From contig NW_021826031.1 in the NCBI RefSeq assembly GCF_006345805.1, positions 62,001 through 126,000 on the forward strand: a DNA stretch of 64,000 nt, in the 5' to 3' direction. Source of the stretch: Octopus sinensis (lineage: Eukaryota). Positions 4,918 through 62,059 of the stretch are shown here, piece after piece. Under the pieces are notes generated by a model, which was not told the origin of the DNA, did no database searches, and saw nothing but the letters and a program-made list of their open reading frames with translations. Position numbers and translations under genes: made by a program. Within the stretch, counting starts at the first letter, position 1. Each line of letters starts with the position of its first letter.

Positions 4918-5812
4918 ATGTCTTCGGATTTATACAAACAGCACTTAAAATTTCTTGAAAAGGCAAAATCCTTTTCTAACGATGTTCCCCCTCCCCAGGT
5001 GAATAAAGAAGCCCGAAATAGTTTATTTAATTAACTAATTGGACAAGAACGCTTTTCATTTGCAACAGCAAAGCCAAAAATAAGCCAAAAACAGCGTTTT
5101 TCAACATTAGCCCGAATTGTCATGTATTTAAAAGTAATAATCAAATTAAAAAAATGAAGGAACGATACAAAGAGGGGCACCGAGATGACTTTACTCTCGA
5201 TGAGATCCTCGAAAGGCTCGAATGTGATTTGGAAGAACGAGACCGCGACTGGCTACTCCACGAGGCCCTTCCTGCCAACGCCAAAGTCGAGATCGGAGAA
5301 TACAACCAAATCAGCTACGTTCCGTCTTACAACATAAACAAGGCCACGGACTTGTTCAAACAAATCAAACAGCACGCAGAAATGGGATTGGAAGGGATAT
5401 TGCTCTCAGAACTGAGGGAGTCAATGAAGGACCCCGATCGCGTGATTGAGGTAGATTTGGTGTGTATATGCAGAATATGACTGAAGTGATCATTCAGATC
5501 CCCCGTCCTGACAAAGATGTCTCCTTATTTTACCGAGGAAGCAAAAAGTTTCGAGTTACGGTGTCTGAGGGTATTGTGGGGGGTCGGAATGTTAGAGATA
5601 ATGCAGTTGTGGAATACTGTGAGCGTCGAGGGATGCGACGAAATGGCCATTGAGTCACATTTGCAGAAAGAGGGGATTCACTGTCGGCAGGATACGATCG
5701 CAATGAAATCTGTTGATTATCAGTTGTCAACTCGCAGGCAATCCCGGCCAAAAAGGATGCTAAGCAGAGCAAAAGACGGAGTACCAAACAGACGAATACT
5801 CATGTCGATTAA
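4918..5812 (+). CDS. GTF2E2: Transcription initiation factor IIE subunit beta (complete copy)
   Basis: MSSDLYKQHLKFLEKAK...RFSTLARIVMYLKERY...WLLHEALPANAKV...GILLSELRES...LWNTVSVE...TKQTNTHVD*; 23-27 nt introns. Confidence 0.85.
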
Positions 5813-6078
5813 ATTTCGATTTTATGAAATTCTATGAAATACTTTTTATAAGCCTTTTACCACCATCAAAGTAGACTGCATTACTTTTCTGTTGTTTTTA
5901 GGTTTTCTGATATTTCGTCCCATGCTTCATTTAAGTTTACTGTAAGTATTGAAATCCTTACAGTAGGAGATCCTAAAATAGGCGCAGTCCTACTTAAAAC
6001 GGACTTAGGTGAGCATCATCGAACGTTTAATACCAAAATATTATTATTTAAAAAAGTTAAATTTTCATATATTGTTTA

Positions 6079-6762
6079 TTAAAATTTGTTTTTCATTAAA
6101 TAGTTTCTGTAGGCTTTTTGCTCAGTAAGATATCCTCTTGGATCACAGTAGTGGGGATATTGTTTGTAGAAATTACAATATCCTCCGTCTATAATTGCCA
6201 AATTGGGATATAATAAAGATTTTCCTTCCCGAATCCCTTTTGTGTTAAATTTTTGAATGATTGAAATAATTTGTTTGCATCTTTTCGATGAAAATTCACA
6301 ATAAAAAATAAAAATAGAATTGCTTCCAGCTAATGTGAATTTCTTTCTTGCTGCACGTTCTGACATTAAACTTGCACCAACAACGTGCCCCATTTCATAC
6401 TCCTCTTCTGAGCGACAATCGAAGATGCTGTAGTTAAGAAATACATCTCCAAAATCATTTCTGATAATTTTAGACACGTATTTAGGGGTAATGAGAGGCA
6501 CTGACAAATAAGGCTCAATTTCAAATTCGATTTTGTAAAGATTCATTTTTCTTATTAAAAGAGATTGAAATTCGGGAAAGTAATCGTAAAAATTTTGTTC
6601 AAGATTAGAAGTTGGTTCTTGATTTATAATTTGTTCAGGAACATTGGCATCTATGAGAGACAAGTTTACATTATTTTCTTTTATTTTTATTTCAGTTGTC
6701 AATTCAAGATTTTCTTTTTCAATAATTTGAGAACTATCATTTTTATCAAAATAGGAATTCAT
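6079..6762 (-). CDS. CDC25: Cdc25/MIH1-type rhodanese-fold phosphatase, copy 1 (intronless)
   Basis: IFDCRSEEEYEMGHVVGA, catalytic loop FYCEFSSKR (CX5R), YPNLAIIDGGY, CDPRGY. Confidence 0.85.
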   Translation of the reverse strand: MNSYFDKNDSSQIIEKENLELTTEIKIKENNVNLSLIDANVPEQIINQEPTSNLEQNFYDYFPEFQSLLIRKMNLYKIEFEIEPYLSVPLITPKYVSKIIRNDFGDVFLNYSIFDCRSEEEYEMGHVVGASLMSERAARKKFTLAGSNSIFIFYCEFSSKRCKQIISIIQKFNTKGIREGKSLLYPNLAIIDGGYCNFYKQYPHYCDPRGYLTEQKAYRNYLMKNKF

Positions 6763-6788
6763 TACCGTAAAAAATTAAAAAAATAAAG

Positions 6789-7707: not shown

Positions 7708-8391
7708 TTAAAATTTGTTTTTCATTAAATAGTTTCTGTAGGCTTCTTGCTCAGTAAGATATCCTCTTGGATCACAGTAGTGGGGATATTGTTTGTAGAA
7801 ATTACAATATCCTCCGTCTATAATTGCCAAATTGGGATATAATAAAGATTTTCCTTCCCGAATCCCTTTTGTGTTAAATTTTTGAATGATTGAAATAATT
7901 TGTTTGCATCTTTTCGATGAAAATTCACAATAAAAAATAAAAATAGAATTGCTTCCAGCTAATGTGAATTTCTTTCTTGCTGCACGTTCTGACATTAAAC
8001 TTGCACCAACAACGTGCCCCATTTCATACTCCTCTTCTGAGCGACAATCGAAGATGCTGTAGTTAAGAAATACATCTCCAAAATCATTTCTGATAATTTT
8101 AGACACGTATTTAGGGGTAATGAGAGGCACTGACAAATAAGGCTCAATTTCAAATTCGATTTTGTAAAGATTCATTTTTCTTATTAAAAGAGATTGAAAT
8201 TCGGGAAAGTAATCGTAAAAATTTTGTTCAAGATTAGAAGTTGGTTCTTGATTTATAATTTGTTCAGGAACATTGGCATCTATGAGAGACAAGTTTACAT
8301 TATTTTCTTTTATTTTTATTTCAGTTGTCAATTCAAGATTTTCTTTTTCAATAATTTGAGAACTATCATTTTTATCAAAATAGGAATTCAT
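7708..8391 (-). CDS. CDC25: Cdc25-type phosphatase, copy 2 (retains native upstream region)
   Basis: Identical to copy 1 except a K/E difference near the C-terminus. Confidence 0.85.
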   Translation of the reverse strand: MNSYFDKNDSSQIIEKENLELTTEIKIKENNVNLSLIDANVPEQIINQEPTSNLEQNFYDYFPEFQSLLIRKMNLYKIEFEIEPYLSVPLITPKYVSKIIRNDFGDVFLNYSIFDCRSEEEYEMGHVVGASLMSERAARKKFTLAGSNSIFIFYCEFSSKRCKQIISIIQKFNTKGIREGKSLLYPNLAIIDGGYCNFYKQYPHYCDPRGYLTEQEAYRNYLMKNKF

Positions 8392-8592
8392 TACCGTAAA
8401 AAATTAAAAAAATATATTTAACATTGAGTTTTAATAAAAATTCTTAATTTAGAAATTTTTTCCTTTCGTAATTTCCAGGCATACTTCCGAGCTGGTCTTT
8501 CTGTCATCTTGTTTTTCAGCTGACTCAATATTATTTGCCATTTTATTCTTCATATTTTCGAGCATTTAGATTCTATAAGTATAAAATGAAAA

Positions 8593-8750
8593 CCGCTTCC
8601 TTCGCTCCCTTGGTCGACGGATATCAAGAAAAAGACACGATTTCAGAGAGCTATCCTGGCTCTTTAAACGTCTGTCGATCGCCGTGATCCGTGGAAATGG
8701 CTTTGCTGTGTGCGAGGCTGGCCGAGCGTCTCGTGAAACCATTAGCTAAT
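8593..8750 (+). mobile_element. 3' end of a CRE-like (restriction-like endonuclease) non-LTR retrotransposon
   Basis: RFLRSLGRRI..SWLFKRLSIAVIRGNG; homologous to 49734-49930. Confidence 0.7.
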
Positions 8751-8919
8751 TCATAAATCTCTTGTTCGCATAGTATTACTGGCGCATACTAAAACAGTAA
8801 AACTATTGTTCAGGTCAAAGAAATTCAAAAATGTTTTAATTAGCTCACCTTATTTAAGATTTATTACGTTTTCTTGGGGAGTGGTGACGTACTTCGTTTT
8901 TTTCTGATACGGATAATCT

Positions 8920-9200
8920 CAATCTAGACTCGTTCCATCGAGACCAACTTCGCCCTACTCTAACCTCCAAATAGCATTCGAGGCTCACCCAAGCAAACCA
9001 ATTTTTCTCGAAATTACACCATGCAAGTGGAGGCTATTCCGATACATTTTAAGGATGAATTTTGAGGCACAGCAAACACGCTATAAATGACTATTTTATA
9101 ACTGACCTCCCGGTTACACTGGACAGAGACTTTCAAACTTTGTGCAAAAACTTAAAGGATGGAGACGATTTTACGGGATGTCGTCCAAGACAAAAAGAAA
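8920..9200 (+). mobile_element. Diverged RTE-like LINE 3' fragment
   Basis: LDSFHRDQLR..KWRLFRYILRM..LPVTLDRDF..LKDGDDF aligns with the ORF at 58124-58690. Confidence 0.65.
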
Positions 9201-12969: not shown

Positions 12970-15900
12970 CTAACTAGAAAATGAAGCTTCCACTGTCGAA
13001 CTTGATGATCCGTCTGTTATCGTAGTAGACAAATTATCAGTAGATGTCGAACATCGAGAAGACCGCGATTCCACGATGCTAGCTCCCTCTTTTAATTTAA
13101 AATCATTTTCAATAGATTGGTCAATTATTGTGGATTGAATTGTAGTATCTGAGTACGAGCACTCAGGATCTTCCTTAGCGAATAAATCGGAAACATATGA
13201 TTCTTAGTAACTAAACCAATTCTAATGAATTTACGATAAGTCGATATGTTTTTTCGATTAATTTCTAATAATTCGTATCTGAATTCGACCAAATTTTCCA
13301 TTTCATTATCATTTTTTTGACAAAATTTTTTGTCGTAAGTAACTGAACTCTGAAAAATATCCTAGAGATAACAGAATCTAATGAATCGACCTGAGGTTTA
13401 ACATTTGAAGATATAGAGGATGTATCCTAAAATTGAAATTTCTTTACAAACCTGTGAAGTATCCAAAACCAATTTAATATCCGGTCCTGTGGAAATAATT
13501 AGCCTAAAAACAACCACAACTTATATTTTCAGACGAAATCGAAATAACTTCATATTCTGGCGAATAAACAGTGGAATATAGAGATTCATCATTTATCTTT
13601 GATTTCTAAAAAAATTAAAAAAACTTCAAACATCGACTGAATCAATAATTATTTTGATATCAGGTTCTATTAAAAAATTCAATACTAAAATATACCGCAA
13701 GGAATCATCTCAGAAGATGTAACAAAAACTTGGGAATCATATGGCATTCGATGTTTCTAAAACAACTCATAAAAGCGTTTAAACTTCTAAAGAATCAAAA
13801 ATCACATTGACATCACGTTCTATTGAAATATCAAATAGTGATGTTTACCGTTTCTTATTATCTCACTAGGTTTAAAAGTTTGTTTGCATGTCGATGAATC
13901 TTGAATCGTCCGAGAGTCCTAATCAAATCAGAAAAAATATTTAAACATCGAAAGAATCAAAAATCACTTTGACATCACGTTCTATGGAAATATCAAATAG
14001 TGATGTTTACCGTTTCTTCTTATCTCACTAGGTTTAAATATTTTTTTGCATGTGGATGAATCTTCAATCGTCCGAGAGTCCTAATCAAATCAGAAAAATA
14101 TTTAAACATCGAAAGAATCAAAAATCACTTTGACATCACGTTCTATTGAAATATTAAATAGTGATGTTTACCGTTTCTTCTTATCTCACTAGGTTTAAAT
14201 GTTTGCTTGCGTGTTGATAAATCTTCAATCGTCCGAGAGTCCTAAATAAATTATAACACACGTTTTTATACATAGAAAGAATCAAAAATCACTTTGACAT
14301 CAGGTTCTATTAAAATATCAAAAATTGATCCTTACCGTTCCTTTTTATCTCACTAGGTTTAAAAGTTTGTTTGCGTGTTGATAAATCTTCAATCGTCCGA
14401 GAGTCCTAAATAAATTATAACACACGTTTTTATACATCGAAAGAATCAAAAATCACTTTGACATCAGGTTCTATTGAAATATCAAATATTAATCCTCACC
14501 GTTCCTTTTTATCTCGCTAGGTTTAAAAGTTTGTTTGCGTGTTGATAAATCTTCGATAGTCCGAGAGTCCTAAATAAATTATTAAACACATTTTTTACAT
14601 CGAAAGAATCAAAAATCACTTTGACATCAGGTTCTATTGAAATATCAAATATTAATCCTCACCGTTCCTTTTTATCTCACTAGGTTTAAAAGTTTGTTTG
14701 CGTGTTGATAAATCTTCGATAGTCCGAGAGTCCTAAATAAATTATTAAACACATTTTTTACATCGAAAGAATCAAAAATCACTTTGACATCAGGTTCTAT
14801 TGAAATATCAAATATTAATCCTCACCGTTCCTTTTTATCTCACTAGGTTTAAAAGTTTGTTTGCATGTTGATAAATCTTCGATAGTCCGAGAGTCCTAAA
14901 TAAATTATAAAGCACATTTTTTACATCGAAAGAATCAAAAATCACTTTGACATCAGGTTCTATTGAAATATCAAATATTAATCCTCACCGTTCCTTTTTA
15001 TCACACTAGGTTTAAAAGTTTGTTTGCGTGTTGATAAATCTTCGATAGTCCGAGAGTCCTAAATAAATTATAAAACACATTTTTTACATCGAAAGAATCA
15101 AAAATCACTTTGACATCAGGTTCTATTGAAATATCAAATATTAATCCTCACCGTTCCTTTTTATCTCACTAGGTTTAAAAGTTTGTTTGCGTGTTGATAA
15201 ATCTTCGATAGTCCGAGAGTCCTAAATAAATTATAAAGCACATTTTTTACATCGAAAGAATCAAAAATCACTTTGACATCAGGTTCTATTGAAATATCAA
15301 ATATTAATCCTCACCGTTCCTTTTTATCACACTAGGTTTAAAAGTTTGTTTGCGTGTTGATAAATCTTCGATAGTCCGAGAGTCCTAAATAAATTATAAC
15401 ACACGTTTTTATACATCGAAAGAATCAAAAATCACTTTGACATCAGGTTCTATTGAAATATCAAATATTAATCCTCACCGTTCCTTTTTATCTCATTAGG
15501 TTTAAAAGTTTGTTTGCATGTTGATAAATCTTCGATAGTCCGAGAGTCCTAAATAAATTATAAAACACATTTTTTACATGGAAAGAATCAAAAATCACTT
15601 TGACATCAGGTTCTATTGAAATATCAAATATTAGTCCTCACCGTTCCTTTTTATCTCACTAGGTTTAAAAGTTTGTTTGCATGTTGATAAATCTTCGATA
15701 GTCCGAGAGTCCTAAATAAATTATAAAACACATTTTTTACATCGAAAGAATCAAAAATCACTTTGACATCAGGTTCTATTGAAATATCAAATATTAATCC
15801 TCACCGTTCCTTTTTATCTCATTAGGTTTAAAAGTTTGTTTGCGTGTTGATAAATCTTCGATAGTCCGAGAGTCCTAAATAAATTATAAAGCACTTTTTA

Positions 15901-18900
15901 CATCGAAAGAATCAAAAATCATTTGACATCAGGTTCTATGAAATATCAAAATTAATCCTCACCGTTCCTTTTTATCACACTAGGTTTAAAAGTTTGTTTG
16001 CGTGTTGATAATCTTCGATAGTCCGAGAGTCCTGAATAAATTATAACACACGTTTTTATACATCGAAAGAATCAAAAATCACTTTGACATCAGGTTCTAT
16101 TGAAATATCAAATATTAATCCTCACCGTTCCTTTTTATCTCACTAGGTTTAAAAGTTTGTTTGCATGTTGATAAATCTTCGATAGTCCGAGAGTCCTAAA
16201 TAAATTATAAAGCACATTTTTTACATCGAAAGAATCAAAAATCACTTTGAGATAGGTTCTATTGAAATATCAAATATTAATCCTCACCGTTCCTTTTTAT
16301 CACACTAGGTTTAAAAGTTTGTTTGCGTGTTGATAAATCTTCGATAGTCCGAGAGTCCTAAATAAATTATAACACACGTTTTTATACATCGAAAGAATCA
16401 AAAATCACTTTGACATCAGGTTCTATTGAAATATAATATAATCCTCACCGTTCCTTTTTATCTCATTAGGTTTAAAAGTTTGTTTGCATGTTGATAAATC
16501 TTCGATAGTCCGAGAGTCCTAAATAAATTATAAAACACATTTTTTACATGGAAAGAATCAAAAATCACTTTGACATCAGGTTCTATTGAAATATCAAATA
16601 TTAGTCCTCACCGTTCCTTTTTATCTCACTAGGTTTAAAAGTTTGTTTGCATGTTGATAAATCTTCGATAGTCCGAGAGTCCTAAATAAATTATAAAACA
16701 CATTTTTTACATCGAAAGAATCAAAAATCACTTTGACATCAGGTTCTATTGAAATATCAAATATTAATCCTCACCGTTCCTTTTTATCTCATTAGGTTTA
16801 AAAGTTTGTTTGCGTGTTGATAAATCTTCGATAGTCCGAGAGTCCTAAATAAATTATAAAACACATTTTTTACATCGAGAGAATCCAAAATCACTTTCAC
16901 ATCAGGTTCTATTGAAATATTAAATAATAATACTTACCGTTTGTTCTTCTCTCACTAAGTTTAAAATTTTTTTTGCATGTCGATGAATCCCCAATCGACC
17001 GAGAGTCCTAATCAAATTAAAAAAACTTTTTTTACATCGAGAGAATCAAAAATCACTTTGATATCTGTTTCTATAAATACGCCTAAAATAATACTCACCA
17101 TAGCATTTTGCCTCAGAAGGTGTGTTGATTACTTTAAAAGTGCCTGGTTCATCAGTTGTATTCCATTTCTATAATATAAATGATTTTTTTAACCTCAACT
17201 GACTTTCCTGATTTAATAGAGTCCTATGAAAATTATTTCAATACACTAAAACATGTTTTTCCCTTCCTTGTAAAAACTGTTTAGATTGCTCTAATATTTT
17301 ATCTGTAATTGAGATATCCTTTACGTTCATAAATCACCAAAAACCGTATTTCTCTTAACGACAGGTTCTAGTCCTAGCATTTTCTTCAGTCTATGAATTT
17401 CTTGTTTCTAAAACTTTTAAGATCTTATTAAACCAACCAGTTCTTCACATTTTGTAACATAGAAACTGATTTTTTTTCAAACCTATTTTCACTTTCAAGT
17501 CTATCACTAAACAATTTTTCATAATCAATTTTGAGTTGAGAATAGTCTTTTAACTAATTTTTAATATATCAAATCAAACAATAAAATCCAATTCGTTACA
17601 TTTCATGATTTGTTTGTTTGATAAGTCTTTGTATTCTTTATTCATATCACTCAATTGAATTTTAAGATCTTCGACCTCCTTTTGTAAAATTGACAAACGT
17701 TCCTATAAATTTTAGAAATTTAAAAACATCATCGTTGTCTAATATTATTTTCACATCCTCATTAAGCAGTAAACTTTGAAGATTTGATTTTGGTATGTTC
17801 ATTTTGATTTCTTTACGAATATTAACAAGTTGCGTCTCCAGATCATCTCTTGAATAAACTAATTTTGCATTTTCTTGGTCTAGAATATCGCTTTCGATGC
17901 GCAAACTCTGAAATATTCAGAATTAAATATCAAACGGTCATTTCCTCGCTCTTTCGAGCCAATTCAGATGTTACATTAAACAATTTTTCTTTGATTTTAC
18001 TGGTTTCATTTAATAAAGACTGTAACTTAGTGTTACTATCTTCTGATTTGTTTTTAAACGTCTAAATCTTAGATTTATCGGTTCACATCAATTAAGTTAT
18101 CTTTTTCTTGAATTTCGGACAAATATTGTTTCAGCTTTGTATTAAGATCTTCTTCAGAGTATTTGAGATTAGGGTTCTTTCGAATATTGAATCAAAAAAC
18201 CTGAGTATTAGGATCGCTCTCATGTTCCGAAATTTTACAGATAAGGTTGGATACTTCTATTTTCAGATTCTACAATGACATGTACAATATTTGTTTACCC
18301 TAACTTCTTTGTTTTTATCATTAAGTTCATTATCTTGCTCTTCCAGCGTTTTTTCCAACAAAGAGTTTGCGTCTTTCATCATAGAAATATCCATGCATAT
18401 TCTATCAAAATTTTTACGTAAATCCTTTAAATTAATCATAATTGTAAACTTTTATTTTTTTATTCTTATTTTTCAATTTCATTTCATAGTTTTCAATCAT
18501 TTTCACTGACGACAAATTGAACTCTTTGAGAGTTTCAATTTGATTCTTTATATTTTCAAGCTCACATCGCAGTATCTATTCACATTAAAATTGAAAAACT
18601 AGAACTTGGGTTTCATTTTTGTATCCATCTAAAAGCTTTATTTGCGAGTATTCCTTTTCTTTCAATTTTTTGCATTCTTGATTACAGTTGTTTAACATTT
18701 CTTGTATTTTCTATCATTTGAAAAAGTTTATTAACGTCGATTTCTGAGGATCTCTCTTCTAACTTTATCTCTGTTTCATTTAATCTCGCTATCAGTTGAT
18801 CGTTTAATTCTTTGAGGCCATCTTTTTCAAAGTTTATCGTTTTATCTTTAGAATCTTCAGTTTTATTCTGCTTAGATTAGTTTCTTGCAAATATGCTTAC

Positions 18901-21900
18901 TTCATCAATCATTTCTGTTGTATCAAATATAATTTTGACATCCTTTACAAAACTTGTGTTCAGTTTATTCATTTCTACTCGAACATTCGCGAGATCGTCT
19001 TCTAGTCGATTGTTAAAATATACAAGCTGTTCTTTTTCCCTCAGCAATGAATCTTCTTTCGTCAAAATAGTCTAAAATGCAGTAAAGAATATATCCAACA
19101 ATAATATTTTGGTCCTTTTCGGACAATTCGTCATTAAGTTTTATCAAATCTTCTTTTAGCTGAGAATTTGAAATTACGAGTGACTGAATGTTGTTATTAG
19201 AATCTTCTAATTCATTTTTCGACAACTAAATTTAACTATGGTTATATAAATACTATTATCAACTCATCTTTTTTCGTAATGGAATTAGAAAGTTCAGAAA
19301 TTTCCATTTTTAAATTCTAAAATAAAATTTGGTTATTAGAAACCTCATTTTCCATTTCTTTCAATTGGAAATTTTGCATTATTTTCTTTAATTCGTCATT
19401 AATTTCAAGATAATTTTGTTTATAGTCTTTCAAAGCATCAACCATGGCAGTTAATTCCTATTTTTGATAGAGGTTTATTAGTAAACTAGGATCTGTTGAT
19501 TTTTATCACTTAGGTCATTTTCTCGTTCTCCTAAAGTTTTATCCAGAACTGATTTGGACTCTTTAACAGCTGTGATGTCCAAACAAATACTGTCAAAACT
19601 GCTGCGTAAATCCTAAAATTGATATAATTTTTTGACTATTAATTTTTTATTTGAGTTTTCCAATTCCATTTCATATTTTTCTATTATGTCAACAGACGGT
19701 CTTTCTTGAAAATTACATAGCTCCGTTCTCAATTCTTCCAACTCATTTCTTAATGTCTATCATGAATAAATAATAAATTAAAAACCTGGTTTACTTTTCT
19801 CTCTTCTGACAACTCCTCATTCGTTTCTAAATTTTGAGAGATTCCATTTTTGATTTCCTGATTTAATTCTTCGTTTTGAATTTTGTAATTCTGTAATATA
19901 TTCATTAAATTCTAAAAATTTAAGAGACATTGACAAAAAACATCATTTTCTTCACTTTTGTTTTTCAGTCCTATCTCAATATTTCGTAATTGTAATTGGA
20001 GCTGTTCGTTCACTTCTGAAAGTTTTTCTATCTCAGCTTCGTACATTTTCGTTTCATCCTCGAATTTCTAAAACTGTTGACAAACTTAACTTTAATTTTA
20101 TGATTTTCATTTTTGAGTGACGTATTTAACTCGTCGATCTCTTTTTGCAGTTTTATCTGCTCTTCCATCAAAACGTTGATCTGAGACGTGTATTCATTTT
20201 CTTTTTTTTCTAAGATTTGGTTCAAAGACTTCAATTCTTTCAATTCTTTGAGTAGCTCTGCAAATTCATTTTTTAGTTCCTGTAAAATAAGAAGTGAAAC
20301 TAACTTTTGTTTCTTCTCTTTCAAGATACAACTTATTCTCTAATAAGGAAAAGTCCTCGAGGATGAATTCTTCATCTTTCTGTGCGTGCATTTTAAATAA
20401 ATTAAAATCATTTTCCAAGGCCTGATTAAAAAAATTATATGTAAACTTTGATTATTTCTTCTTTTTCCCCTATTTCTCTGGACATTTTTTCCTGCAAATT
20501 TGTCTGGTATATTTTTTCAGCTTCAATCGTTTTCAAATTCTCAATTAGTTCCTTACACACTCAAACTCATTATATACCTCATTCAGCTTTTCCTTGATAT
20601 CTAAATCAATTCCGTATTTCGATAACTTATTTTCCGACTCTGTATGCAACCCTCTCAGTTCAAACAACTCATCCCGAGTTGACGCAAGTTCTCTTTCAAT
20701 TTCCTGAATTTTTTATCATTTGTTTATACTCTATTAGTTTCTTCCAAAACGTTTATTTCAGACTTGAGAGTTTCAATGTCTTTAAGCAAAATTGTTTTCA
20801 TGTTATTCGTGTTCTCGATGTACAAAACGCGTTCATTTTCCAAATTCTATTAAAATTATTTTCATTAATAACCATAATTTCTTCATTTTTAACATTCAAT
20901 TCACTTTCAATCTTCTTTAGTGTCTTTTTTAATTCCTTTTTCATTTTTTTATTATTTTCTAAGTCAGATTGAATATTCATCATTTCCTATATATAAAATT
21001 GAGTTTTGTTAACATCAATTCGATCGTCTTTGTCTTTTAGAAGATTATCGGAATTTCTCATTTTCTCTTGCAAATCGTTATAATTAACATTTAGATTTTC
21101 ATAGTCATTCACGATAGTTCTATAACAATTCTCTAATTCCTAGATAATAAACTAAAATAATGATTCCAACGCTATATTCTTTTTCTTTTTTATCCGCACT
21201 ATCTTTGATGTCCTGTAACTTTTCATTTAAATAATTTTCAGATTCTTTATAATTTTGAGTGATCAGTTTTATTCGATTTTCCAGATTCTAAAATATAGAT
21301 TATTAATCAACAGTAACTTGAATTAGATCGTCCTTCGTTTCCAAATTCTGATTCAATTTGGAAATTATCTGTTCTAATTCGTATTGAATCTCTTCAAAAT
21401 TTTTCATTGAGGGAGCATTTGACATTTCCTAATATAATTTTATCAAGGTGATGACAATAATTTTGACGTCTTTTTCTTTTATTTGTTGTTTGTAATAAGA
21501 TGGAGACATTCTGAGAGAATCACAGATCTCTTCAGATTCCTGAAGTTTTTGACTCAAAATTTGTAAATTTCCTTCAAGTTCCTGTTTTAATAGTTCATAA
21601 GGTTAATTTTTAACTTTCATGTGCTCATCTTTTGACGCCAATTCGTCATTGACAACCGCGAGTTTATGAGCATCTTCCACAACTGTCCTTTGAGAAAGGG
21701 ATAATTCATTTTTTAGCCTCTATATAGTCAAGTTTAATCTTCAGACCTCGATATCTTTATCTTTTTCTTGTAATTCATATGAATTATTTTGCTTTAGTTT
21801 TTCTATAGATTCGCGTAGGTCCAAAAGTTTTTTATTATCCTTACAAATTAAATAAATATTGATTACATTATCCTCATCACTGATGATAGAGGAGACTTTA

Positions 21901-24818
21901 GACTGACTGGTGTCTTCTTCACTTGAACTGTCAGTATACAAAAGATGTATTTTTATATCTTTCTCGTTCTTTGAAATCATGATTATAAGATTTACATTAA
22001 TAATGTAATCATTTTCTTGAGGAGTATATTTCAAATTTTTAGATTCTTCTAACAACTTTTCTAGTTCTTGGACTTTGTTATTAAGAATCTGGTTAGACGA
22101 GTCGTTTTCCGCAATTTTGCTTTTTAGCTTTTCAATTTCAGAATGAAAACTCCTCGAAATATCGTTCTTTTCACTTTCTTTTGTTTCTAATTCATTCAAA
22201 AGAGTGCTTATTCGATTGTTCAAAGAGTTCATTTCCTCTTTTAACCGATCATTTTGAACATCGAAACACCCTATTTTGTAACTTTGAGCATAGACTGCCT
22301 TTATCTGCCAGATTATAGTTGTCATTCTGATAATATTCCCCTTCATCCTCTTCTATCGTCGTCATTCGTAACTAAATATTATGTCGGCGCCACGCAAACG
22401 GTTGAATATTCCAAACTTGTTTCATTCGGATCAAGTTGAGTGGCCATAGTCTATTAAATTAAAATTAAATCATTCAATCACCGTTTGTTCGGTGATTTGC
22501 TGATCGGGAGTAAGATCTAGAATGATTTGATCGAGTTTGGAGATTTTCTGTTTATAGTAGCACTCCTTTTGGCATTTTATGCACCAAAGAATATACATTC
22601 TCTCTGTATTCATTGTTTTCAATTAATAGCTCGTTTCTCTTGGCAGTGGATTCGCTTAGTTCTCTGGTAACCCAATCTTTGTCTTCCTTAATTGTAGTGA
22701 ATAAATTTGGGACTTTGATTTCGTCGAAATCGACTTTTATTGCTTCCAGCTGGTCCTCGAGTTCTTCGATTTGCGACTGTAGTTCTTTGTTTTTAATTTC
22801 CGTGTTGGTAAGCAGACTGCATGATTCATTTAATTCTTCCTTCAATCGGAAAATCTCTGTTTCAAATGTCTCATTCTATGAAAATCAATAATTGTTCACT
22901 ATTACTCCATTTTGCCTACACTTCTCCAAATCTACCAGTTGCTCGACAAGTTTTTTATTGTCTTCCTGAATTATGAAATAAATAAATTACTTTTAAATTA
23001 GTGGCTTCGTCTACTGAATCGTTAAATATAGATTTTATTTGTTCAAGTTGCTCTTGGTTACAATTATACAAGTTTTCGAGTTCTTTTATTTTTAACTGAA
23101 GCACATTATTTTCTTTTTCCGCTTCATTAAACAGCAAATTTGTCGCGTTCATGTGCTCTCTTAGTTCACTAAGCTCTGATTCAAACATTTTTGTCTATTT
23201 CAAAAATAAAATTAAGCTAAACCGTCTCCAAAGCACTTTGTTTATCATTCTCAAGTATTCCTTCAAGTGTGATTTTTTCTTTTTCAGAATTATTTAAAAG
23301 TAACTCAGTTTCTCTGATTTTTTCCTTTGCTTCCCTGAGTTCTCGAATGGTGTTTTCTGAGACGGTCTCCAACTTTAAATTCTCATTTTCAAGAAATAAT
23401 ATGTCCATCTTTAAATTGTATTGAATAGTACTACATTTGATTGGACAGATGTTAATTCGTTTTCTAGATTATTATTGAGTAGTGCCAGATTGTCTGCTCT
23501 TGACCGTAACTCAATATTCTCCTGTAAAATGTCGTTTGATTGAGTTTGACAATTTTCTAGGACAGCCTTTTCATCCTACAAATTGTCCTCACGGAATACA
23601 CAACCTCCAGTATGTCAATTCTTTCTTTAAGATAATCGACTTCCTGCTGATATTCTATAATTATCGATTATACAGATTCAAACTTTTAATTTGTTCTTTA
23701 TTTCTGGCTACTTCTGACTATTAAAATATAATATTGCCACATCATGCCTTAAAAGAGTTGACTTCTTCCAAATCTAAGGAAGACTCTCTGGAACTCCTTG
23801 ATAAAGAATCCTTAAGGTTTAAATCAACATTTCGTACATTGAACAATATTTTTATATCTTGTACATCATTTGGCCCTGACTTCATTCCAGTGTCGAATTG
23901 TTGACCTAATAAATGGATGAACTAGAAATTCTCACATTCCTCGTCGCTAAGAACAGATTTTGCTGACAATTTTCTATCTTGCATATGTTTTTGCGTTCTC
24001 AGTTGAAAAATAATGTTTATAAGCTCCTCTCTTGAAAGGTCGTCTAATTGGTGTGGATCATTTGAAGTTGACTCGTGTGCAGTTTCATAGAGGGACAAAA
24101 ATAAATTATAAATAACGATTTTTGAGTTTTGTAAATCCTGTATTGAACTATAATATGTCTAGAAAATTAATAGAAAATTAACAAACCTCGACGGTGTCTT
24201 TCATTATTTTATACTCTCGAATGTGTTGGTTATTACATGTTTCCAATTCCCGTAATTTTTGTTTGATTTTAATATTCTGTGTGTTGAAATGTTTAATTTA
24301 CCTCGATTTTGGTCTCCTGGAGTGTTGTACTTTGATCACTCAATTTAGATTTCAGGACAATCTCTTCTTTTCGGAGTAAATCGTTTTGTGTGCGTAAAAA
24401 AGTAATTTCCTCGTTCTTAATCTTATCAGAAGATTTTTCTGACTGAGACTAGACCAAATAAAAATGACAAAAAACCATTTGCAGGTCTCCAAGTGAGTTA
24501 ATAAAGTTTGTTTGCGCCAACACTATGGCTTTAGCATCTTCTAACTCTCGCCGGGTATTCTGTAGGGTATCGTCAATGTGGTCATTTGCCACACATTTGA
24601 GTTCTAATTCGTCAATCATTAATCTAAGTCGAATTGTCGTTTAATTTTTACTGGAGTTGTGATTTTTCCTGTCGAAGTCTTCGCATTTCTTGTTCCCATT
24701 CTTTATTAGCTGTTTTATAAAGGACACAAGCTTTAGTATAGTCTGAAATGAGATCTTCAAACTGTCCTTTAATGCTCTCAATAAATCCTTCTTTAAAGTA
24801 TTCTGCGCATTCAGTCAT
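12970..24818 (-). CDS. Giant (roughly 3000 aa) many-exon coiled-coil protein with C-terminal 35-aa repeats; orphan, possibly ciliary/rootlet
   Basis: Starts MTECAEYFKEGFIESIKGQFEDL. The E/K/L/N-rich heptad exons I spliced join in frame through 24-37 nt introns (not every junction checked). Ends in a Ser/Thr-rich tail ...VEASFSS* (TAG). Confidence 0.7.
13775..17100 (-). repeat. 163-bp intragenic tandem array, about 21 copies (two exons + two 29-nt introns per unit)
   Basis: Unit splices to DSRTIEDLSTRKQTFKPSEIKRN|EPDVKVIFDSFD| (105 nt coding + 29 + 29 = 163). Period verified, e.g. 14598 to 14761. Confidence 0.9.
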
Positions 24819-29678: not shown

Positions 29679-30770
<1,092 letters not shown>

Positions 30771-50219: not shown

Positions 50220-51300
50220 TAATAACTTGAATTTTCATATGTCCAGAGCATTCGACTCTGTTCACAGAACTAAACTTGTGGAAATACTTATGACCTTCTT
50301 AAATTCATGACGACATCAGAATAATCCTAATGTTCTTCAGAACACTCAATTAGCAACCAAACTTGGTAAAAATGTGTCAAACTATTTCTACACATCACGG
50401 GGCATTACCACAAGGCGATTCGCTGTCCCCAGTCTCTTTTCGTCTATTAGAGGCAGCACTCAGAGACTTTCGGCCTCTTGTGGACAACATAAATACAACG
50501 AAATAATATATGCTGGATGTCGACTTCGTATTGATGATGCTGAAACCCTTCGATTTATTATCGAAACATTACCAGATATTTTTTCCAAATGGTTCTAACA
50601 ATCAACCACAATAAAACTGAACATACGAAATTTATTCGATCTGAACGAACTCATGATGAGCCCTGGAGAAGACAAAAAAAAGTCGGATCTCTCTTAGGGG
50701 ACTCTGAAGACATTATGACAGACAGAAAAATACTATCAATTGCCACATACAATAAGTTTATGAACATCTGGCGCCTAAAGAAGCTAATTCAAAGACAAAA
50801 CTTAAATATACAACACATTTGTTGTCCCAGTCCTAATGTACAATGGATCGACGTGGGGAATGTAGACCGATATGAACAATTTGGACCGATTTCATCGGAA
50901 CCAACTGAGAAGTGATAAAACATGCAATTCTAAGGAAAATAGCAAATTCCACCCTATACAAAAGATGCATTCGAGACCGATCTCTATGGACATCCTGGAG
51001 TCAAATGGCGACTCTTTGGACACATTATTAAGACTTGACAGCCTCACTCCGCCGAATATCGCGATGGAAAACTACTTCGCCCATTCAAAGGAGACTTCCG
51101 TGGAAGACCCAGGGTCACTCTGGCTAACACGCTAAATGAAGATCTAGCTGGAATTAATAAAAAACTGAAAAATGGCGATGATCTCGACTACTCAGGACGA
51201 TCGCAACTGACCGGAGAGCCTGGAGACGCATGACCGGGAGAATTTCAATGGTGGCACAAGGAAAGCTTAATTAATATGACTTTTCCGAAGTGCTTATAAT
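50220..51300 (+). mobile_element. RTE-like LINE, RT C-terminal half, frameshifted by many small deletions
   Basis: MSRAFDSV, PQGDSLSP, near-identical to 58089-58718 over the shared part; ends TTATAATAA. Confidence 0.85.
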
Positions 51301-53738: not shown

Positions 53739-54877
53739 TTAATTGTCATCACTTTCCTGAGGTTCTGCCGGCTCATTTTCATCCGGCTCATTTTCATCCG
53801 CCCCATTTACCTCATCTCCATCAACTTGCTCGAGATTCTCTTCCTCATTATCATGTGTCGTGACACCCACGATCTCCAAATCTTCAGTGATGTTGTCGTC
53901 TTCGTTGTTCTCTTCCAATGCTTCCTTGTCTTCATTTGCTGTGATTTCCTCTTCGTTGGGAGGCTCCGAGACTTGATCGACTGGTTTATCCTCTTCCTCA
54001 ACTACGGGTTCCTCGGGTTTGATTTCTTGGTCTAAAACTCCACTTTCGATGATTTGTTCAGGAGGTTGTGGAATCTCAGTGGTCGTGTTTGAAGAATAGT
54101 TCTCGATGGAATGGACCTTCCACTTGGGGGCAACATTGATCTCCTCTTCTTCTGGGTGTTCCTCGTCCCCCTAGGCTATGTACAGAAGTAATCCAACCAT
54201 GTTGATGATCTCATATGTACCGATTTGTGCACAGCCGACATCAAAAATGTATCGGCCCCTTCCTTGTGGCTATTGGGAATATATATTTTCGAATAATACT
54301 TTATTATTGTTGAATTTGCCTACGAATTTGTGGTTCCGGTGAATGAGTTCTCCGTACCCCACTTGCTTGCCCTCTTTCCACATTCCGACGTATTTCGACC
54401 CTCCTTCTGCGTAGGTGTAGACCCCTCGGCCATTCCTCTGGTTGGAGTACCACTCCCCCTCGTATGTGTCTCCGTTCACATAACAATATTTCCCCAATCC
54501 AAATCTCTGGTCGTTGGCCCATCGCCCTGTCAATCAGTTTACAGGGGATACCTTCGTATGAAGACCCGTCTGGATAATAAAATGTGCCTTCTCCGTGTTT
54601 TAGAGACCCCAAATACTCCCCGTCATAGCGTGAACCATTTTTAAATCAATTTGATAAGGCACATGTCTTACTTATACAAACCACGTCCATTTCGTTTTCC
54701 ATTTTCATATTGTCCTTCGTATGTGTCTCCATTGGGAAGTATTGCCTTGCCGTAACCGTGTCTTTCTTCATTCTCATTTCTTTCCCCCTCGTAAGACTAG
54801 AGGGACTAATTTTAGAACAATACTCCGAGAGTTGGGCCCTGCTCTTCCTCCCCTTCTTCTGAGTCAGTGAAAGACAT
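53739..54877 (-). CDS. RSPH1: Radial spoke head 1 (MORN repeats, acidic tail)
   Basis: [55 protein letters not shown]; five introns, one apparently GT-TG. Confidence 0.9.
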
Positions 54878-55079: not shown

Positions 55080-56780
55080 TATCCTTCCACACATTTGTTA
55101 CCATTCTTCCTGTTATTTACTATTTTTCGTAGTGCATCGAGATCCTCTCCACTTTGTTTATTCCTGCTAAGCCTTCGGCAAGAAAAGTGGTTATGGGCTT
55201 TCACGGAATGCCTATTTGGATTGAACAAAATAACTTTCCATGGATCTTTTTTGTCGGAGACCTCAATGCACACAACACATCCTGGTACAAATCAAACTCT
55301 AACAACTTTCGCGGAAACCTAATATGTGAATAATTAAACAATCTATTCATCCTCAACAAACTCAAAAAATACCCCCTCCAACCATACCAATCAAACCACA
55401 ACACCACCTTTTGGATATCTCATTCTGCTCTCCAAACCTAACATCAAATACCACATGGAATACAATTAATGAACTATCATCAGATCATACACCAATCCTA
55501 ATACAAACAAATGCCATAATCAACATTCCGAACAATAACACGTTCATAAACTACAAAAGAGCCAAATGGAGCCTCTATAAAAACGGAACCGAACAATTTT
55601 TCTTGGAAATTACCGGGGACATACGCCTGTCAAATATACATAAATCCAACAAGCTTTTCACCGATATTATCTCGAAAACAGCGAAGACACATCCAATGGG
55701 GAACATAAGGAAATACAACCCGAATTACACCAAGGAAATAGCAGATTTAATGAAAACTCATGACAACCTCAAACACAATACGTCATGGATATTGCCACCC
55801 GACTAAGAGAGCTAAACAAGAAGATATCTAACAAACTCAAGGAAAGGTAAAAAAAACTGGCGTCAGTTCGGCAATACCCTCAACTACAAAACAAAAACAC
55901 TCTTCAACACAATAAACAGAATCGTCAACTCGGACAATGGAGAAACCCATGAGTCTATAAAATCTAAAAATGGTCTACCCACTGACAAAGAACATGCCAA
56001 TCCCTTGATGAAACACTTCAAAACATAGCCACCGCAAACGAGATTGTCACTCACACAAACCACGAGTACAGAAATACCTCCTTGACAACAATTCCAATCC
56101 ATTCATCCAATAAGAAGTGAAAAACGTAATTGCCATCCTTAAGCAATCCCATGCAACTGGACCCGACAACATTAGCAGTTTCCACCTCAAAGGTCTGGGT
56201 GATCATTGATTAAAATATCTCACATCGATACTAAATGAATCTTTTAACAACAACACCATCCCACAAATATGGAAAATTGGGATAATTGTCACAAAATTAA
56301 AACCACATAAACCAGCTGCCGACCCATCATACTGACCAATCACACTTCTGTGTACCTCCTCAAAAATAATGGAACGTCTAATTTTAAACAGAATATCTCA
56401 TAAACTTTTAATTAGCAAAAAGCAACATGGCTTCAGACAATATCATTCAACGATAACTCTATTCACAAATATGACACAAACAATATCAAACGGATTCAAC
56501 AAAAAAAACCCTCCCCTTCGGACAATATTAATCATTCTGGATCTAAGCTAAGGTTTTGACCCTATTCTGCGACTCACACTAACAAATAAAATCATAAACA
56601 CAAATATTGATAATAACTTAAAATAATGGATATCCAATTACCTCAGTGGGAGACAAGGTTATGCCCAACTCAACAAAAACGCTCAAATACATGAATCCTC
56701 CTCAATAGAGAACCTCAGGGCTCAGTCCTATCCTCCATACTTTTCAACACTTACCTAAATGACATTCCTACACCGTCCAG
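55080..56780 (+). mobile_element. Degenerate I/Jockey-like LINE (AP endonuclease + RT)
   Basis: GDLNAH, LSSDHTPI, ATGPDNI, PITLLCTSSKIMERLI, QHGFR, PQGSVLSSILFN; multiple stops. Confidence 0.85.
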
Positions 56781-58088: not shown

Positions 58089-58718
58089 TTATTATTATAA
58101 AGCACTTTCGGAAAAGTCATAAGTTAATTAAGCTTTCCTTGTGCCACCATTGAAATTCTCCCGGTCATGCGTCTCCAGGCTCTCCGGTCAGTTGCGATCG
58201 TCCTGAGTGAGTCGAGATCATCGCCATTTTTCAGTTTTTTATTAATTCCAGCTAGATCTTCATTTAGCGTGGTAGCCAGAGTGACCCTGGGTCTTCCACG
58301 GAAGTCTCCTTTGGAATGGGCAAAGTAGTTTTCCATCGCGATATTCGGCGGAGTGAGGCTGTCAAGTCTTAATATGTGTCCAAAGAGTCGCCATCTGGAC
58401 TCCAGGATGTCCATAGAGATCGGTCTCGAATTGCATCTTTTGTATAGGGTGGAATTTGCTATTTTCCTTGAGAATTGCATGTTTATCACTCTTCTCAGTT
58501 GGTTCCGATGAAATCGGTCCAAATTGTTCATATCGGTCTTACTGATTCCCCACGTCGATCCATTGTACATTAGGACTGGGACAACAAATGTGTTGTATAT
58601 TTTAAGTTTTGTCTTTGAATTTAGCTTCTTTAGGCGCCAGATGTTCATAAACTTATTGTATGTGGCAATTGATAGTATTTTTCTGTGCATAATGTCTTCA
58701 GAGTCCCCTAAGAGAGAG
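58089..58718 (-). mobile_element. 5'-truncated RTE-like LINE, intact frame, (TAA)n tail, 12-bp TSD
   Basis: KLKIYNTFVVPVLMYNGSTW..RWRLFGHILRL..RGRPR..DRRAWR; ATATAAAAAATA at 58077-58088 and 58719-58730. Confidence 0.9.
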
Positions 58719-58782
58719 ATATAAAAAATAAATATACTTTTATAAATAATAATTTAATAAAAATAATATTAATTAATAAAAG

Positions 58783-58799: not shown

Positions 58800-59537
58800 A
58801 TGCTATGCTACAAGAATAACAAAATTTCTCAAAAACTAAAACAAAACGAGCAACCTCCAGTAGCCGGGGCATTTAAACAACGGAAAGCAAAACCTTCACT
58901 TTTCCGTTACTACTACGAACGAGGGGACTTCCCCATTGCCCTCGAACACGACACAAAGGGCAACAAAATCGCCTGGAAAGTTGTTTCTCTCATTTAATTG
59001 TCAGGTGGAAATAGAAAAGCTGAACTACAGGCACTATCTGCCACTCTTTTTTGACGGCCTCAGCGAGACTGAGCATCCTTATGAGTTCTTTGCCAGACAA
59101 GGAGTCCACGACATGTTAGAACACGGGGCTGGAATGGTGAGAGATATTGTCCCTCAGTTGATCCTTCCAATTAAAAGTGAGGACATAAATTAGATTGTAG
59201 GTGCTCTTGAGACGAGGAATCCCCAAGTGATTTGTACTACTTTGAAGGTTATTCAGCATTTGGTCTTGTCGGACGAAATGGTGGGACAGGCTTTGGTCCC
59301 TTACTATCGACAGATTCTTCCAATCCTCAATATTTTTAAAAATTTTAACCGTTTAACTTTTGGTTGAATAATTTAGTCAATATTGGGGACGCAATTGACT
59401 ATGGGCAACAAAAAAAGGAAAATATTGGAGATTTAATTCATGAAACGCTCGAAATACTCGAAATCCACGGAGGAGAGGATTCTTTCATAAACATAAAATA
59501 CATGATTCCTACATTCGAATCATCCATTCTTAACTAA
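58800..59537 (+). CDS. PACRG: Parkin co-regulated gene protein (axonemal inner junction)
   Basis: [57 protein letters not shown]. Confidence 0.95.
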
Positions 59538-60439: not shown

Positions 60440-61148
60440 TTAGCTAAAAACGAAAAGAGTTAAAATGCGCAGCGGATCGACTGGCAATTCCCTCGCATGA
60501 TGGCCATGAGATCCTTTGAAAGAGTCTGATCGACTCGTTGGGATCTTTCGTGGCAACCACGAGCTTAGATCCAAGGCTGCGGGAAGAAACGATAGCGTCT
60601 GCGGCCGATGACTCCAGAGGTTTCCACCGCGACTGCAGTGAATTGGTGATTCTTTGCCAGGACCCGGTACTTCTTCTGTTTTGTTAGTTCCGCCTGCTTT
60701 GCACTGAGCCCGGTTCCGCAGCGGAGACAATTAGATTCTTGGCGGAGAAAGTGTCGGAACAGGTGGCGTCCCAGATAAGGCATTTCCCCTTTTCAAACGG
60801 GAAGATTGACATGCCATCCGGGGCTTACCGTCGCCTCTGTCGAGCCCGACTGGTTCGAGTCATTAGGAAACCCCGCCGTCGTTAGGGCACGGCTCACGGT
60901 GTCGTTGATGGCGGCGTGTCGTGGGAAACGTCCGGCACTACGTGAGCAGGAGAGAGGGGATGATGGCCAAATGAGTCCACTCTTAAACCGCAGCGGCACT
61001 GGTGTGTTTTGCAAATGGGAAGTCCGAGGCGGAGAGAGACGGAAATCCTTACACAGTCGTTGTCCATTAAGGTGCCGATTGACGCCATAGGGATTGCTGT
61101 AAGCCATGCACCGGAATATGGTTGCGAGGCGGCCAATAAGCAAGCCAA
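60440..61148 (-). mobile_element. CRE-like retrotransposon C-terminus (CCHC knuckle + restriction-like endonuclease)
   Basis: [45 protein letters not shown]; frameshifted. Confidence 0.85.
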
Positions 61149-61256
61149 AATTATAAGAAATCTTTACGAGAATGCTATAGTTAAAGAAAATAAGCCATTT
61201 TTGAACTCAAAAATTAAAATGTTCATAAGAATTAATTATGTAAATTCTATCTTAAA

Positions 61257-61832
61257 TTATTTAAGAATCCAGATCGTCAGTGATTTCTCTTCTTCGCTTG
61301 AAGAAGAGTTTGCAACAAAATTCTCATCATTTTCCATTTCTGCGTCAAAGTAATTGTTTAATTGAGTGTCCTCACGACATGCCAGCTCCGCAAGTTGATT
61401 GGCGGCAGAGGCGTACTCCTCGTTGTCTACCTTCATCCCATGTCTGTGTTCAATAAGCATACTCTCTAGAGTCCTCTTCAGCACAACCGACTGGATGTAT
61501 GTCCTCGTTCCTTCTTCAATGGATAACTTGTCCATATGACTTTTAAAGAACTTTGAGACAACTCCATCCCATGTCAAAACAATTGGAATAATCTTCACTT
61601 TTGCTTCATAGAGAACCGACAGTTCGTTTGCAAGCAGGTCATATTTGTGAAATTTCTCCACTTCAACTTGCTTTAAACGGTCTTGCGAGGTAACTCCCAC
61701 TTCGATTAAATGAATTTCTCTTTTCCTCTTGTCATAAACGAAGATATCAGGTTTATTGAATTGAACTTTCGTTTCAGTCATAATTGACGTGTCAACTCTG
61801 ATTTCGACATTTGGGGTCGACATTGTTGACAC
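61257..61832 (-). mobile_element. R4/Dong-like non-LTR retrotransposon endonuclease domain
   Basis: NKPDIFVYDK..LIEVGVTSQD..EKFHKYDLLANEL..IIPIVLTWDGVV. Confidence 0.85.
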
Positions 61833-62059
61833 AACTGAATGTCATTTTAATTTCCTGCTTCGCACCATTTTTGAATATAAGGCAAATAAATACTAAAAAA
61901 GATTTGAACAAATGAAGATTTCTTATCATATCTGATGACAAATGGAAAGCACAATTTTTTCTGAAGAATGCATTTTTCATGTGATCCTGAACAAACAAAA
62001 AAGCCGTGAACAACTTAAAATATTTCAACAGTGAAATTTGGAACAGGTTGATTTGGCCT

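Follow-up and report, generated by a model that had tools for sequence, protein, structure and literature searches.

Is the large tandem repeat in a gene-dense stretch of an octopus-labelled genome assembly a satellite, or is it a coding sequence cut into very small exons? The repeat lies within 64,000 nt of DNA (the window; Octopus sinensis, assembly GCF_006345805.1, contig NW_021826031.1, positions 62,001 to 126,000), where it has a period of 163 bp and contains no long open reading frame (ORF) in the ORF listing of the window. An earlier interpretation made from the DNA letters (the sequence-only reading) proposed that this apparent satellite is a spliced coding array, each unit carrying two micro-exons and two 29-nt introns. 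Contigs from two studies now bear this out. The explanation favoured here, to which we give a probability of about 0.8, is that the array is a spliced coding minisatellite, likely the disordered tail of a coiled-coil scaffold protein of ~3,000 aa, in a micro-intron parasite that is probably a dicyemid.

Architecture of the array

Tandem Repeats Finder (TRF) reports a single large array in the window (13789-17074; period 163, 20.2 copies, 94% matches). Read on the minus strand, all 20 near-identical units parse as exon A, intron 1, exon B and intron 2, and they are flanked by degenerate modules of the same design, one upstream (17168-17008) and two downstream (13756-13427). The totals are 23 modules and 46 introns of 25-30 nt within 3,742 bp, close to the sequence-only reading, which had counted about 21 units diverging towards the edges. 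Exons of 70 and 35 nt encode the 35-aa peptide given there in 18 of the 20 units; the other two, units 6 (start 16357) and 8 (start 16031), are short of one and two exon bases respectively, which shifts their frame in the assembly. The peptide has neither alanine nor glycine.

GT..AG ends are kept in all 46 introns. The unit as a whole is frame-neutral, with 105 coding nt and phase 0 at both ends; single exons of 70 or 35 nt are not frame-keeping. Intron phases are conserved in the degenerate modules, and exon B is exactly 35 nt and carries its motif in all three, while exon A ranges from 61 to 91 nt. Intron 2 is 30 nt long in five intact units and 27 nt in one, lengths that would keep the frame if the intron were retained, but with a stop at the second codon; these forms represent at most two independent events. 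Coordinates are collected in Table 1.

Table 1. The array, its predicted gene and one further gene of the window (window positions).
Feature	Position	Strand	Basis
Core array, 20 units of ~163 bp, each with a 70-nt exon A, a phase-1 intron 1 of 26-29 nt, a 35-nt exon B and a phase-0 intron 2 of 27-30 nt	13757..17007	-	TRF, parse; junctions in X3 and X5 contigs
Example exon A (unit 3), 70 nt	16775..16844	-	Parse and contig junctions
Example intron 1, 29 nt; if retained, in-frame TAA at third full codon	16746..16774	-	Junctions; stop from sequence
Example exon B, 35 nt, core motif D-V-K-V-I-F-D	16711..16745	-	Parse and contig junctions
Example intron 2, 29 nt, with an alternative in-frame donor 9 nt into it that the contigs seen do not use	16682..16710	-	Junctions
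Degenerate first module: exons of 70 and 35 nt, each followed by a 28-nt intron	17008..17168	-	Parse; X5 contig linking the 70-nt exon with an exon B
Last two modules, degenerate: exons A of 61 and 91 nt, both exons B of 35 nt, intron phases unchanged	13427..13756	-	Parse; X5 record 14 extends into 13756
Six-unit higher-order repeat, units 3-8 resembling units 9-14	14896..16844	-	Unit comparison
Predicted front part, ~2,100-aa coiled coil, 49 modelled introns mostly 23-33 nt, four core-motif copies	17169..24818	-	Gene model
Predicted last exons, encoding a Ser/Thr-rich tail; stop at 12972-12970; two candidates for the last intron	12970..13426	-	Inferred
Thymidylate synthase gene, six introns of 22-24 nt (context, outside array)	29681..30699	-	Homologue alignment

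Splice junctions in sequencing-run contigs

A parse of the sequence is weak evidence for splicing, as 49 of 300 shuffled units also admit a stop-free parse with two introns; the question is settled by the junctions seen in aligned contigs of sequencing runs. Contigs of four runs (X1, X2, X3 and X5) were aligned to positions 16682-19700, which contain units 2 and 3, with the likeness set at 88; runs X4 and X6-X9 (shares 0.05-0.16) were left out. X1 is a DNA run and possibly the source of the assembly, X2 is from the same sample and hence not independent of it, X3 comes from study P2 and X5 from study P3. We take X3 and X5 to be transcriptomes, from their exact GT..AG removal and small size (58 and 85 million letters).

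The introns are kept in X1, with no splice joint. In X3, a 117-nt contig runs from a complete exon A straight into exon B, with CT..AC at the ends of the joint (16745 to 16938, short side 34 letters), and four loose ends in the same run match the spliced neighbouring exon. Three X3 junction strings occur in the 35-codon splice and nowhere in the window; two of them rule out an alternative 20-nt intron 2, favoured by splice scoring, that would give a 38-aa unit. A 797-nt contig of X5 (record 14) passes through exon B, exon A and exon B and then on into the exon at 13756, with a joint from 16843 back to 16710 (short side 37 letters). X5 also has one further joint of exon B to exon A, and another of its contigs joins the 70-nt exon 17168-17099 to an exon B. 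Intron 1 is removed in X2, and the intron 13784-13757 is retained.

These contigs confirm that the array is spliced, with both junction types present as well as links to the exons just upstream and downstream. The A to B and B to A junctions fall at the sites predicted by the sequence-only reading, and the 29-nt intron is removed in contigs of both studies. Because X5 contigs join flanking exons to array exons, the array as a whole is not a single large intron, and transcripts extend at least as far as 17142 and do not end before ~17100. Contigs of X2, X3 and X5 give no cover at 17143-19700, where a record filter makes this evidence neither way; the word share of X2 (0.53) exceeds the 0.435 attainable from model exons outside the aligned stretch, a weak hint that records were dropped.

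A predicted coiled-coil gene

A splice-aware search found a stop-free path from the ATG at 24818 through 50 introns into module 1, with a predicted product of 2,127 aa. This predicted front part is rich in E, L, K and N and shows heptad periodicity (0.18, 0.18 and 0.15 at lags 7, 14 and 21). The model includes 33 consecutive phase-0 introns; of the 32 exons that these enclose, 10 measure exactly 126 nt (42 residues, six heptads), and 15 have lengths of whole heptads (p=1e-5). The core motif of exon B, D-[VI]-K-[VIL]-[VIL]-[FLIV]-D, recurs upstream in four looser copies, against a shuffle mean of 0.096, and none of 5,000 shuffles reached four. At the other end, the length of X5 record 14 fits the predicted tail (657 nt past the last exon B versus 612-650 modelled). 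On this gene model, the array is likely the tail of one coiled-coil protein of ~3,000 aa.

Pfam families above the curated cut-off were absent from 30 model exons, a scan in which the repeat unit itself was not included. The ESM Atlas gave nothing for exon 1, and the largest exon led to generic coiled-coil clusters with low recognition. Residues ~5-35 of the first exon (24654-24818, minus strand) match 320 proteins, and the six scanned were all tetratricopeptide repeat (TPR) proteins; Pfam calls no TPR there, and the match may represent a lone TPR-like helix pair or chance. Neither a paralogue nor an orthologue from a second species was found in the assembly by DNA or by first exon (with just one and two candidates scored), no synteny was seen in 100 kb of contig C9497 or in C1116, and no further full motif occurs in 664 of the 668.6 kb of C2502, the contig that holds the window.

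The coiled-coil part also carries exon blocks of an older duplication that includes introns. One pair is 19756-19487 and 18575-18299, a second is 19225-18901 and 18061-17728 (all on the minus strand, 1,170-1,190 bp apart), and the duplication scores are z 19, 8.7, 7.6 and 7.1.

Variation and copy number

That about 40 introns were amplified along with their exons, as first proposed by the sequence-only reading, follows from the unit structure. Across 13 core units, diversity is 0.038 in introns and 0.016 in exons, and introns have been homogenised together with exons. The earlier claim that variation is concentrated in introns holds in part: the GT..AG ends are kept throughout, but the intron excess is modest. 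With units 6 and 8 excluded, diversity is 0.108 in introns and 0.059 in exons (~1.8-fold), and variable columns number 25 of 60 versus 29 of 105 (Fisher p=0.08). Columns with gaps are 7 in introns and 0 in exons without these two units, or 10 and 3 with them. The 33 distinct exon changes comprise 23 replacement and 10 silent changes (0.28 versus 0.46 per site), and four of the five variable exon sites in core units are replacements.

The higher-order repeat of units 3-8 may be a real block duplication or an assembly artefact of units 9-14; units 3-8 hold 10 of the 11 missing bases, as would be expected of a long-read copy with poor support. Relative to a single-copy contig, two X1 array contigs reach depths of 6.4 and 5.4 (7.4 and 6.2 on another baseline), where the assembled array would predict ~8.8 and 7.1, and an array without units 3-8 ~6.4 and 4.8. 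Contig depth is not a copy number, and this is only a hint that 20 units are too many.

The array ends differ between genotypes. Among X1, X2, X5 and the assembly, no two have the same end units; the last unit in X1 has an exon A of the unit-19 type joined to the end of unit 21, a possible graph chimera, and the last units in X2 and X5 carry changes absent from every assembled unit. Length alleles, that is, differences in unit number between genotypes, are likely.

Source of the DNA

The window lies on a contig of 668,565 bp (C2502) within a 2.7-Gb assembly labelled as octopus, and is gene-dense, with 16 of the 23 ORFs scanned matching Pfam families. Its thymidylate synthase gene provides an independent calibration of intron size, and introns of 22-24 nt are normal on this contig; the same six introns were placed by 8/8 homologues aligned, chosen among the 120 listed. 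A second thymidylate synthase, on contig C10479, has kilobase gaps between exons. The CNNM protein of the chromosome-scale contig C15 groups with molluscs (support 98), and the window CNNM forms a very long branch outside them in a quick tree, in which the placement of long branches is unsure. The window CNNM is 99% identical to a protein labelled Octopus sinensis by NCBI, and no dicyemid-named sequence appears among the 120 CNNM and 120 thymidylate synthase matches listed.

In the main-text account of PMC13644364, animal introns as short as these are reported only for myxobolids and dicyemids. The median intron length of Dicyema is given as 27 nt (PMC6543705), and dicyemids inhabit the renal sacs of octopuses and other cephalopods (PMC6736024). 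Taken together, intron size and the CNNM tree indicate that the contig is not host DNA and belongs to a parasite cobiont, probably a dicyemid. A 29-nt intron is ordinary in such a micro-intron cobiont, an origin that the sequence-only reading overlooked.

Another compact contig (C9497:280001-380000) carries a second divergent CNNM (P0122) and repeat families in common with C2502, and may come from the same or a close parasite. Both CNNM proteins of the compact contigs are filed under the host's name. The window further contains a MORN-repeat gene (54270-54645, minus strand) and a PACRG gene (58864-59193, plus strand), both cilia-related, as would fit a ciliated parasite.

Proposed mechanism and function

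A frame-keeping module of two exons and two introns was probably amplified and homogenised by unequal crossing-over, slippage or gene conversion, and the amplification copied pre-existing introns along with the exons. The tiny introns would shrink the module to minisatellite size and so expose it to minisatellite-like mutation. Unit number would then be likely to vary by genotype, with protein length set at the DNA level and not by exon skipping.

The tail may display ~23 copies of a short beta-strand binding motif, and we would guess that one partner is bound with high avidity. SUMO-interacting motifs have a core of the form hydrophobic-x-hydrophobic-hydrophobic with an acidic flank. By eye, this pattern matches the modules and the four upstream copies, and binding is putative; a SUMO-type beta-strand binder is our guess at the partner, somewhat unlikely to be right as it stands. 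A reading of K-V-I-F as the RVxF motif for PP1 was set aside, several copies being without F.

A broader proposal is tentative, though possible. In animals with micro-introns such a module might act as a true minisatellite, with intron number, protein length and binding valency segregating as alleles of a variable number tandem repeat (VNTR), and the same process might have built most of the gene earlier (33 phase-0 introns, heptad exons of 42 residues). If so, the shrinking of introns would let a single gene gain dozens of them quickly and without transposons.

Alternative explanations

Several points weigh against the favoured explanation. Regarding the spliced contigs, X3 and X5 are not recorded as RNA (none of the 18 runs is), P2 and P3 date from one year and possibly from one campaign, the likeness was set at 88, the two additional X5 joints (one of them to the upstream exon) have short sides of 27 and 25 letters, and contigs built from repeats can be chimeric. 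The gene model is the sole link to the coiled-coil part above 17142, and searches with the 203-aa ORF and the first exon found no homologue of the protein. The peptide is under weak selective constraint, differences in copy number are deduced indirectly, and the scaffold role and the binding partner are guesses.

The array could be spliced and coding and yet be nearly neutral, a by-product of slippage in a tolerant disordered tail where the number of motifs has no role. This shares the splicing and duplication steps of the favoured explanation and departs from it on function only. The replacement/silent ratio of ~0.6, the predominance of residue-changing variants in the core, the differing end units of the isolates and the failure to find a conserved homologue all speak for near-neutrality, but the 35-nt exon B and its motif are kept in the three degenerate modules, where exon A ranges between 61 and 91 nt, and the motif recurs four times far upstream. 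Near-neutrality is possible, leaning towards doubtful.

It is unlikely that the array is a separate short gene starting at ~17170-17250, with the coiled-coil gene ending upstream of it. None of the aligned contigs connects the array to exons above 17142, but the frame is open from 24818 into module 1 with regularly spaced introns of 23-33 nt and no intergenic gap, and the same motif is found on both sides.

Equally improbable is a protein length tuned by alternative splicing that skips 105-nt units, in the manner of the Schistosoma micro-exon genes, which make variant proteins by exon skipping. The sequence-only reading had suggested that unit skipping might tune the protein in this way, and the units are frame-keeping; in one X5 contig the upstream exon is followed by an exon B like that of unit 2 and not that of module 1. 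This join is equally explained by a different allele, X5 differing from the assembly at several other sites, and no unambiguous skip was found in the contigs, which are unable to resolve one: apparent skips of 191-208 bases in the contig alignment were rejected as a mapping artefact in which a collapsed repeat maps onto two units in the stretch. Single exons of 70 and 35 nt are not frame-keeping, and the sole alternative form seen is a retained intron (in X2, which shares its sample with the possible source). Recognition across the intron is the general rule for introns this small, and it makes skipping less likely.

A non-coding satellite with a GT/AG pattern arising by chance is extremely improbable, the lack of a long ORF and the readiness with which shuffled units parse being outweighed by the exact junctions that two studies show in their contigs and the DNA run lacks; it would survive only if the joined contigs came from an intronless DNA copy.

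Implications

The array offers a transcript-supported case in which tandem duplication has recently multiplied ~40 spliceosomal introns within a single gene, compressed to units of 163 bp. It is also a natural test bed for the splicing of micro-introns, as all 46 near-identical introns of 25-30 nt have to be spliced out, and consensus introns left in place would cut the protein short; by simple arithmetic, an efficiency of 98% per intron would give ~40% full-length message. Two practical consequences concern genome annotation. Coding exons of dicyemid and myxozoan genomes can be concealed when repeats are masked, and this large host assembly includes parasite contigs, at least one gene of which (P0121) is catalogued as the host's.

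Other repeats and elements on the contigs

In the window, 5102-6785 is repeated at an offset of 1629 (to ~8410) as a near-identical tandem duplicate of 1.63 kb containing TFIIE-beta (plus strand) and a Cdc25-like rhodanese gene (minus strand); it may be a real duplication or an assembly artefact. Fragments resembling ORFs of LINE-type retroelements were recognised by eye at 50311-51135, 55330-55806, 58124-58753 and 60779-61841, several of which are common to C9497.

Within 664 kb of C2502 there are five distinct arrays with a period of at least 45, and splicing was examined only in the 163-bp array. A 169-bp array near the contig start (C2502:3370-6552 and 8330-9159; 19 and 5 copies) has possible parses with one intron, of a kind that is common by chance. 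An 84-bp array of ~63 copies near the contig end (C2502:646834-652031) has a consensus with open frames and a possible 27-nt intron. Related satellites of 94-95 bp occur at C2502:302684-303718 and C9497:313190-314530; at its basic period the one on C2502 yields no clean coding parse. An internal array with an 18-bp period and telomere-like CCCTAA units lies at C9497:357069-357358.

Comparison with known systems

A close parallel in layout is the KIV-2 repeat of LPA, where a 5.5-kb unit of two exons (160 and 182 bp) and two introns (4 and 1.2 kb) has been measured at 1 to over 40 copies (PMC4378929). As in that gene, tandem units of two exons and two introns lie within one gene and are flanked by diverged single-copy modules of the same design. 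KIV-2 encodes a folded kringle, whereas the unit described here is 163 bp long with 29-nt introns, encodes a short motif and is likely, from indirect evidence, to vary in copy number. The spidroin genes MaSp2.1a and MaSp2.2a of Argiope contain alternating homogenised introns, and their authors knew of no other eukaryotic gene built in this way (PMC9779670). Two alternating intron types, homogenised within a coding repeat, are found in both cases, but the MaSp2 products are secreted silk proteins with poly-alanine units. The array belongs to neither the LPA nor the spidroin family, as no Pfam family was found in the 30 model exons and the unit is without alanine and glycine.

Multiplication of pre-existing introns by internal tandem duplication has been described for TOUCH3 of Arabidopsis (Gao and Lynch 2009, cited in PMC4974935). 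Whole introns were likewise copied there with flanking exon sequence, and no intron was created from an exon; TOUCH3 underwent two duplications, compared with ~20 homogenised rounds here and 46 introns in 3.7 kb. The micro-exon genes of Schistosoma have exons of 3-81 bp and introns of 0.2-5 kb and encode secreted proteins (bioRxiv 10.1101/2023.06.21.545858). They resemble the present gene in being parasite genes with many exons below 81 bp (here 35 and 70 nt), and differ from it in three respects: its introns measure 25-30 nt, its exons are copies in tandem, and an exon on its own is not frame-keeping.

Dicyemida and the myxobolid Myxozoa share with this gene ultra-short introns, with a median of ~27 nt and reduced GT/AG signals, but their main-text accounts cover intron size and not intron-bearing tandem arrays (PMC13644364, PMC6543705, PMC6736024). 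No report of this gene or of intron-bearing minisatellites in dicyemids was found in a literature whose coverage was incomplete, subscription journals and supplements lying largely outside it. The architecture itself is known from KIV-2 and MaSp2; what differs here is the minisatellite scale that micro-introns permit.

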